From Candidatus Aenigmatarchaeota archaeon (GTDB lineage: Archaea > Aenigmatarchaeota > Aenigmatarchaeia > GW2011-AR5): a stretch of 64,000 bases of DNA. The notes beneath the pieces are model-generated. The model was not told the origin of the DNA, ran no database searches, and saw only the letters and a program-made list of their open reading frames with translations. Where the stretch lies: NCBI GenBank assembly GCA_016187335.1, contig JACPJW010000001.1, forward strand, positions 32,001 through 96,000, given 5' to 3'. A program made the position numbers and the translations under genes. Below, piece after piece: positions 42,698 through 43,082 of the stretch (its first letter is position 1; the number at the start of each line of letters is the position of its first letter).

Positions 42698-43082
42698 GAG
42701 GCTAGGCCGGGTAGCTAGCGGTTGCCTGTAGAGACCCTTTTCTTTTGGAAAGAAAAGCGTCTACGGAAAAGAAACACATTATGATATGATAGGCGGAAGC
42801 CGTAGTTTTCGTAGACGTTTTTGAGCATGCTCAAAAAGGTCTTGGGCAAAACCGTCAGTCCGCTTCAGACGGGGCCGAAGCCCAAAGGCGGTGCAGTCGC
42901 TTCAAAAAGCCCGTTGTTCAAGCAACGAAGCCCAGCCCGCTGGGATTTCTTCTGTAGCAAACCGGGTCAGGCGGGGAACCGAGCAGCCCTAAGTTATAGT
43001 CGGAATGCTCAGCGGTATCTGGGTGGAGCAAGAACTCCGGACAAACTTTTTGCAGCTTCTGCATCCACTGCGGGCGCGCCTC
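42698..43082 (+). ncRNA. ffs: SRP (7S) RNA containing a 120-nt BHB-flanked intron; mature about 265 nt
   Basis: Helix 8 GGG-TCAGG-CGG-GGAA-CCG-AGCAG-CCC (42964..42989); GGCTAGGCCGG 5' end; GGGGCCGAAGCCC; Alu helices 3/4 with AGCGG/CCGCT loop-loop pairing; terminal GAGGC/GCCTC. Confidence 0.9.
42730..42849 (+). other. Putative BHB intron in the SRP RNA Alu domain
   Basis: Central helix GCCT/GGGC, bulges GT|A and AA|A, inner stem GAGACC/GGTCTT; splicing yields CC-TGTAA-CCGTC. Confidence 0.8.

Follow-up and report, generated by a model that had tools for sequence, protein, structure and literature searches.

Archaeal BHB motifs are cleaved after the second nucleotide of each bulge, and the BHB introns of crenarchaeal rRNA genes and cbf5 pre-mRNA provide precedents for the action of EndA and RtcB outside tRNA. 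The closest described case in SRP (7S) RNA is that of Thermoproteus tenax and T. uzoniensis, whose SRP RNA is permuted and circularised (Plagens et al. 2015, eLife, PMC4731332). The termini of the permuted RNA lie at the tip of helix 8, and the authors postulated an ancestor with a simple intron, a form that had not been seen at the time (PMC4731332). As for tRNA genes, that paper cites work on transposed and non-canonical introns in Thermoproteales (Sugahara 2008 and Fujishima 2010, as cited in PMC4731332), and tRNA introns with non-canonical BHB motifs have been described in DPANN archaea (PMC5829648). Our full-text literature searches found no published intron in a colinear SRP RNA gene, in line with the first-pass annotation of the locus studied here, which knew of no linear SRP RNA intron.

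The 120-nt insert that we describe here, in the SRP RNA gene of a member of the Aenigmatarchaeota, is very probably a spliced BHB intron, judging from comparisons of sequence. As in Thermoproteus, SRP RNA maturation would proceed via a BHB motif and the tRNA-splicing endonuclease, presumably with RtcB, which is here a prediction. In contrast to Thermoproteus, where the gene is permuted and the product is a circle, the gene is colinear and its predicted product is a linear spliced RNA; the predicted intron separates helices 3 and 4 of the Alu domain; and the single EndA of the host, a DPANN archaeon, is alpha4-like, unlike the (alpha-beta)2 enzyme of a crenarchaeon. The insert shares with archaeal tRNA BHB introns the motif, the predicted enzymes, and the occurrence of related intron sequences at different sites. 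It differs from them in its host, in a central helix that uses a strand of the later helix 3, and in a weak exon-side helix. Compared with the rRNA and cbf5 introns, both the host RNA and the lineage are different. The mechanism is a known one; the novelty lies in SRP RNA as the host, in a site within the Alu domain, in competition of the motif with helix 3, and in the scale, with 17 of 58 genes of one order affected.

The window, the whole stretch of 64,000 nt that was analysed, belongs to a genome of 1.01 Mb in two contigs that is 91% complete, and DNA of this archaeon is present in groundwater metagenomes. The SRP RNA gene and its parts are as follows.

42668..42675, plus strand: putative TATA box TTTAAGAA, about 24 nt upstream of the SRP gene start, inferred by reading the sequence
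42695..43085, plus strand: SRP (7S) RNA gene, matching Rfam RF01857 with 97.9 bits over model positions 1-317
42695..42729, plus strand: exon 1, with the 5' strands of helices 1 and 2, helix 3, and UGU of the UGUNR turn
42730..42849, plus strand: predicted BHB intron of 120 nt, the best excision against the profile of intron-less orthologs and the site of a 142-for-23 insertion in the Rfam alignment
42850..43085, plus strand: exon 2, with AA of the UGUNR turn, helix 4, helix 5, and the S domain with helix 8

With the full RF01857 model, the score of the gene lies just above the gathering score of 96.5 bits, which identifies it as an archaeal SRP RNA, and a search of the whole genome returned the same locus. 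Intron-less members of the family score 110-137 bits. The intron brings the length of the gene from 271 nt to 391 nt. Its Rfam alignment is colinear from position 1 to position 317, a gene order distinct from the permuted one of the Thermoproteus type, and contains 142 nt in place of 23 RF01857 model positions, immediately 3' of CCUGUA. A motif similar to the putative TATA box, CUUUAAnAUCUUU, is found at the same upstream distance at the SRP genes of two other genomes, G050 and G059. A 96-aa ORF at 42821-43111 overlaps the SRP RNA gene and was rejected as spurious.

The boundaries of the insert were defined by homology. All products of 265-276 nt that can be generated by one excision (about 2,400) were scored with an nhmmer profile built from intron-less orthologs. 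The top excision corresponded to 42730-42849, or to the equivalent one-base shift, and its product gave 209.2 bits as a single match, whereas the unspliced gene gave two separate matches of 169.1 and 20.5 bits. At these boundaries, the following elements are found.

42724..42727, plus strand: exon strand of the BHB central helix, GCCU, which closes helix 3 in the mature RNA
42728..42730, plus strand: 5' bulge GUA, with the predicted cut after U42729
42731..42736, plus strand: 5' strand of the inner helix, GAGACC, on the intron side
42838..42843, plus strand: 3' strand of the inner helix, GGUCUU, on the intron side, pairing with GAGACC (6 bp)
42844..42847, plus strand: intron strand of the BHB central helix, GGGC, pairing with GCCU
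42848..42850, plus strand: 3' bulge AAA, with the predicted cut after A42849

Two 3-nt bulges, GUA and AAA, thus flank a 4-bp helix, GCCU/GGGC. Cleavage after the second nucleotide of each bulge would produce the spliced junction GCCUGU^AACCGUC (^ marks the point of joining), which restores the UGUNR motif. The minimum free energy (MFE) fold of the predicted 271-nt spliced RNA displays helices 2, 3, and 4 together with a normal S domain, a canonical Alu fold, and the loops of helices 3 and 4 contain AGCGG and CCGCU, respectively. The first-pass annotation had proposed, from the letters of the sequence, an insert of 120 nt splitting the Alu domain, a BHB at its ends with these same strands and bulges, restoration of UGUNR by cuts after the second bulge nucleotides, and complementarity between the two loops. 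Each of these proposals agrees with our results, with a reservation that concerns the exon-side helix. The two comparisons that it had named as checks, homology scores with and without the insert and a search for orthologs lacking it, also came out in its favor, the latter with 41 of 58 genes.

The exon-side helix is weak, with 1 bp in strict register. The MFE fold favors a 5-bp helix, CGGUU/AACCG, in which A42850 is paired and the 3' bulge becomes a 2-nt AA, so that the BHB motif is, in the predicted structure, relaxed on the exon side. In the structural ensemble computed for the precursor, the BHB core pairs have probabilities of 0.87-0.97 (0.87-0.89 for the central pairs), and mature helix 3 has a probability of about 0.1. 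In the precursor, formation of the BHB excludes that of mature helix 3, and the two alternatives have almost the same energy (-158.5 versus -157.6 kcal/mol), which we count as a point against the interpretation as an intron. An Rfam search over 36000-48000 (E <= 0.5) gave no match inside the intron, neither to a C/D box RNA nor to a tRNA.

The intron contains the T-runs TTTTCTTTT and TTTTT, which could terminate archaeal transcription, and we count this against splicing. They raise the possibility of a split gene, in which transcription would end at the T-runs and restart at an AT-rich, promoter-like stretch within the intron, and the two half-RNAs would pair and be spliced in trans. The split tRNAs of Nanoarchaeum are a precedent for halves that are cut and joined in this manner. 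Both halves would keep their BHB strands, and the repeat module from which the intron is partly built, and which is described below, has TTTTCTTTT followed by a GGAAAAGAAA(A)TATTA-like sequence and is found elsewhere between a stop codon and the next gene. However, the TATA-like part is degenerate in the SRP copy (AAACACATTATGATA), and in two tRNA T-loop introns the AT-rich box precedes the 3' splice site by only 18 nt, which leaves too little room for transcription to begin upstream of the BHB. A split gene also calls for extra steps and explains nothing beyond what splicing in cis explains, and we regard it as very unlikely.

The SRP RNA genes of related genomes allowed the boundaries and the motif to be compared. 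An SRP RNA match was obtained in 58 of the 70 genomes of the order, and most of the genes are 267-274 nt in length. Inserts of 35 to more than 220 nt are present in 17 of the 58 genes, the remaining 41 having none. The distribution is patchy even within genera (an insert in 3 of 9 in genus g17 and 2 of 5 in genus g9), which fits gain and loss of introns.

A BHB-like pattern is by itself not rare, as four of four central pairs occur in 2.4% of all site pairs. A naive BHB scan of whole SRP genes was dropped as a test, many chance candidates scoring as high as the true site or higher. The significance of the motif lies in its coincidence with boundaries defined by homology. For each of the 17 genes, we collected all excisions, 1-8 in number, scoring no more than 1.5 bits below the homology optimum. 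This homology-chosen set includes, for 13 genes, a site in the canonical register with a perfect 4-bp central helix and bulges of 3 nt. When the offsets of the two strands were unequal, a register gave 1.2 genes on average, compared to the 13 in the canonical one; clearly unrelated registers gave 5 genes at most, and one-base-slip registers, which share pairs with the true helix, gave 10 at most. When the 3' partner was slid by 1-6 nt, the helix was kept in 0-1 of the 17 genes, compared to 15 of 17 at the chosen sites, two of which (those in G034 and G059) had been selected on the basis of the motif. The genes of G048, G059, G034, and G012 fit only with three of four central pairs or with a 1-nt shift.

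Eleven pairs of exon and intron strands co-vary among homologous introns: GCCU/GGGC, GCCU/GGGU, GCCU/AGGU, GCCU/AGGC, ACCU/AGGU, CCUG/CAGG, GCUG/CAGC, GCUG/CAGU, UAUG/CAUA, UGUU/GACG, and CGGG/CCUG. After excision, the predicted spliced products of the orthologs align without gaps, and the Alu domain is conserved. At the level of sequence, we consider this comparative evidence decisive in favor of a predicted BHB intron.

In 15 of the 17 genes, the insertion point falls in a stretch of 3 nt in the UGUNR turn, which links Alu helices 3 and 4; the two other introns are in the S domain.

Alu site UGU^A: window gene, G014, G015, G018, G048, G053, G059
Alu site one base downstream of UGU^A: G006, G028, G034, G044, G050
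Alu site three bases downstream of UGU^A: G051, G056, G057
S-domain introns: G012, in the 5' strand of helix 8; G063, in the helix 8 tetraloop

Two genomes outside the order, G199 and G085, share the intron site of G063 at the tip of helix 8, in the register CGGG AG^A.

L046 (G063): helix 8 tetraloop intron, 61 nt, CGGG/CCUG
L148 (G199): helix 8 tetraloop intron, 48 nt, CGGG/CUCG
L151 (G085): helix 8 tetraloop intron, 39 nt, CGGG/CCCG

These three are simple introns at the helix 8 tip, the site at which the permuted SRP RNA of Thermoproteus is cut and circularised. Also outside the order, G162 and G072 have further sites at which the top-scoring excision has four central pairs. In 11 of the 15 enlarged SRP genes from outside the order (G122, G111, G186, G167, G103, G093, G143, G078, G097, G121, and G157), scored with the profile of this order, there was no clear BHB.

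In one genus, the SRP genes of two species (L047 of G056 and L048 of G057) have the same Alu intron, UAUG AC^A ... CAUA AA^C, in copies of 35 nt and 105 nt, the longer of which resembles the shorter one with a nested insertion of about 70 nt.

The positions of the inserts bear on a second explanation, by which the insert would be an expansion segment that the RNA tolerates: a mobile, MITE-like hairpin repeat kept in the mature SRP RNA, with the Alu domain mattering little. The SRP of this lineage does appear to have a relaxed architecture. Helix 6 (Rfam positions of about 141-180), which we take to be the SRP19 site, is absent from all SRP RNAs of the order, including the window gene, and SRP19 (PF01922) was not found in the 91%-complete genome, in agreement with the missing helix. 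The loss of helix 6 and the failure to find SRP19 are points in favor of tolerance. On the other hand, helix 8 is the SRP54-binding site, and a gene for SRP54, M domain included, is present in the genome. The inserts that relatives carry within helix 8 would break this site if they were not removed, which suggests that the splicing machinery acts on SRP RNA in this group; that an insert within the SRP54-binding helix is tolerated unspliced is, on the sequences, not plausible. The conservation of the Alu domain and the gap-free alignment of the spliced products also speak against an expansion segment.

The expansion-segment explanation further draws on the composition of the insert. The following elements are relevant here.

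42732..42774, plus strand: dispersed repeat module, consisting of the hairpin CCCUUUUCUUUU..AAAGAAAAG plus CGUCUACGGAAAAGAAA
46216..46269, minus strand: free copy of the repeat, 89% identical to intron positions 5-60, directly after the stop codon of a pilin-like ORF
46271-46780, minus strand: pilin-like ORF with a class III signal-peptide-like N-terminus

The first 50 nt or so of the SRP intron belong to a repeat that is dispersed over the genome in at least 15 copies. Some copies are in tRNA introns, and several are outside RNA genes, directly after the stop codons of ORFs, as would befit a mobile hairpin, and the ends GAGACC/GGUCUU are inverted and resemble terminal inverted repeats. Yet no flanking target-site duplication is visible, so that the insert does not qualify as a MITE or insertion sequence. 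Moreover, the six nucleotides GGGCAA at the 3' end of the intron belong neither to the repeat nor to the ancestral SRP RNA, and it is precisely from them that the strand comes which pairs with the exon and co-varies with it in orthologs. From these sequences, GGGCAA appears as the part that fits the insert to its host exon. Taken with the helix 8 inserts, this makes retention of the insert as an expansion segment unlikely.

The repeat also links the insert to tRNA introns. Positions 3-45 of the intron (43 nt) are 100% identical to part of a T-loop intron in a tRNA-Tyr gene (G000:C2:717639-717681). The hBHBh' motif of this tRNA intron, which is 67 nt in length, is perfect, with 4 pairs in the central helix, 13 in the inner, and 5 in the outer one. 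Upon excision of the intron, aragorn calls tRNA-Tyr(GUA) with a second intron still inside. The first-pass annotation had described the insert as built from modules shared with intron 2 of a tRNA-Glu and with the pilin spacers. The sharing of modules is borne out by the copies in tRNA introns and after the stop codon of the pilin-like ORF; the tRNA-Glu intron 2 was located neither by ARAGORN, applied to the window and, in intron mode, to the genome, nor by Rfam, which gave no tRNA-Glu in 36000-48000. ARAGORN without intron mode called no tRNA in the window. In intron mode, over the whole genome, it returned only 23 tRNA genes. Introns interrupt nearly all of these, and some of the calls are clearly wrong. 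Multiple or non-canonical introns probably conceal many tRNAs. With nearly all of its 23 tRNA genes interrupted, the genome is intron-rich, like those of Thermoproteales.

The copies of the module at stop codons form a set of their own. In the window, on the minus strand, they are found at 46216-46269, 44451-44470, and 37792-37813, and on G000:C2 at 299374, 11304, 520260, 884282, 692061, and 239926. They begin within or right after the stop codon (TAG-ACCC... or TGA-AGACCC...) and continue with GGAAAAGAAAATATTA; they could be a cassette of terminator plus promoter, or a mobile element. An array of pilin-like ORFs lies downstream of the SRP gene on the opposite strand. It extends over 43219-47604 (minus strand) and comprises, in tandem, six or more ORFs whose N-termini resemble class III signal peptides (KGVSPLIATVLLIAI...), so that the proteins are like archaeal type IV pilins. 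Repeat modules are present in its spacers.

A dispersed repeat at the boundary of an insert may also reflect an assembly artefact, by which a copy of the repeat was misjoined into the SRP gene of this metagenome-assembled genome. Public contigs do end where the repeat lies (42732-42774), and among the pieces listed there is none that covers the stretch in full. In the contigs of four DNA runs, there was neither an intron-less allele nor the joint; none of them spans the gene, with breaks at the repeat, and they are uninformative either way. Of the 31-mers sampled from the gene, 97% are present in the runs of one study and 82% in a run that belongs to a second study, done in a different year. 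Inserts at the same 3-nt Alu stretch also occur in fourteen further genomes, which stem from various projects, and a chance misjoin would not yield a BHB in register. An artefact is extremely improbable.

Both enzymes needed for the removal of a BHB intron, a splicing endonuclease and an RtcB ligase, are encoded in the genome. There is a single EndA gene of 202 aa (G000:C2, about 410.5 kb), with PF02778 (N-terminal) and PF01974 (catalytic), which is alpha4-like, and the match to RtcB (PF01139) scores 528 bits. A single alpha4-like EndA is classically of the strict type, which counts against cleavage of a relaxed motif. In DPANN archaea, alpha4 EndA with an extra (L3) loop is associated with disrupted tRNA genes (PMC5829648).

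The ligase gene is itself interrupted.

G000:C2, about 765.2-766.7 kb (L044:1498-3065), minus strand: rtcB, with a split frame

Its two frames are separated by 32 nt between the sequences encoding MPDGH and GYGFPIGG. Removal of 29 nt at GGUCAU^A...GGCAAA^U results in MPDGH-S-GYGFPIGG, in frame. The insert is BHB-like, with an inner stem of 9 bp (UCUUUUCAG/CUGAAGAGA) and a central helix GGUC/GGCA of three pairs plus G.A. The splicing ligase seems, from its gene sequence, to need splicing of its own mRNA. As the interruption would make the supply of ligase dependent on splicing, we count it as a point against the splicing of the SRP RNA.

From the computed boundaries of the insert, a BHB core that is conserved and co-varies across orthologs, the relationship to a tRNA intron, and the matches to both enzymes, we infer transcription through the intron, cleavage, and ligation. 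The gene would be transcribed as a precursor of about 391 nt, in which the 3' strand of Alu helix 3, GCCU, would pair with GGGC at the 3' end of the intron and expose the two 3-nt bulges. EndA would cut each bulge after its second nucleotide, RtcB would ligate the exons to GCCUGU^AACCGUC, and the 120-nt intron would probably be circularised by RtcB. After splicing, helices 3 and 4 would be free to fold and dock. The membership of the intron sequence in a dispersed family of hairpin modules suggests that it most likely arrived by an intron-transposition process that spreads introns among the tRNA genes of this lineage. In a scan of metagenomes, there was no match to the exact 22-mer of the spliced junction, and a 16-mer of the 5' exon-intron boundary gave 111 hits; of 93 loci re-checked by blastn, none matched the boundary, and the hits look like chance.

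As a tentative idea that may well prove wrong, the hairpin module could be a mobile intron cassette that moves between genes for stable RNAs (tRNA and SRP RNA) and the rtcB mRNA by way of the splicing machinery, for example through reverse splicing and copying into DNA, and that is kept only if it gains a complement to the host exon. With half of helix 3 sequestered in the precursor, splicing would then act as an obligatory switch for folding of the Alu domain. If this were true, protein targeting, and even the supply of ligase, would be tied to the activity of EndA and RtcB.

The introns also affect how SRP RNA genes are found. RF01857 scored below the gathering score in 8 of the 17 intron-bearing genes (those of G012, G015, G018, G028, G034, G044, G048, and G053), and its match was truncated in two more (G050 and G059). 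In G050, the SRP intron (L065:1295-1510) includes GAAAAACAGUGU repeats in tandem as well as Ns that mark an assembly gap, so that Rfam found exon 2 only, with exon 1 about 220 nt upstream; in G059 (L066), exon 1 is situated about 140 nt upstream of the Rfam match. Because introns lower or truncate covariance-model matches, SRP RNA genes have likely been missed or mis-annotated in DPANN genomes.

Our results indicate that the simple form postulated for the ancestor of the Thermoproteus SRP RNA is found in 17 of 58 SRP RNA genes of one order, at three adjacent sites in the Alu domain and two in helix 8, the latter including the very site of the Thermoproteus permutation. The finding bears on the movement of introns between unrelated genes, the module being 100% identical to part of a tRNA intron, and on the removal of an intron as a control of Alu-domain folding. 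It also bears on EndA and RtcB as general enzymes of RNA maturation on which the secretion machinery depends. With such introns in 16 related genomes, protein targeting in these archaea most likely depends on the enzymes of tRNA splicing.
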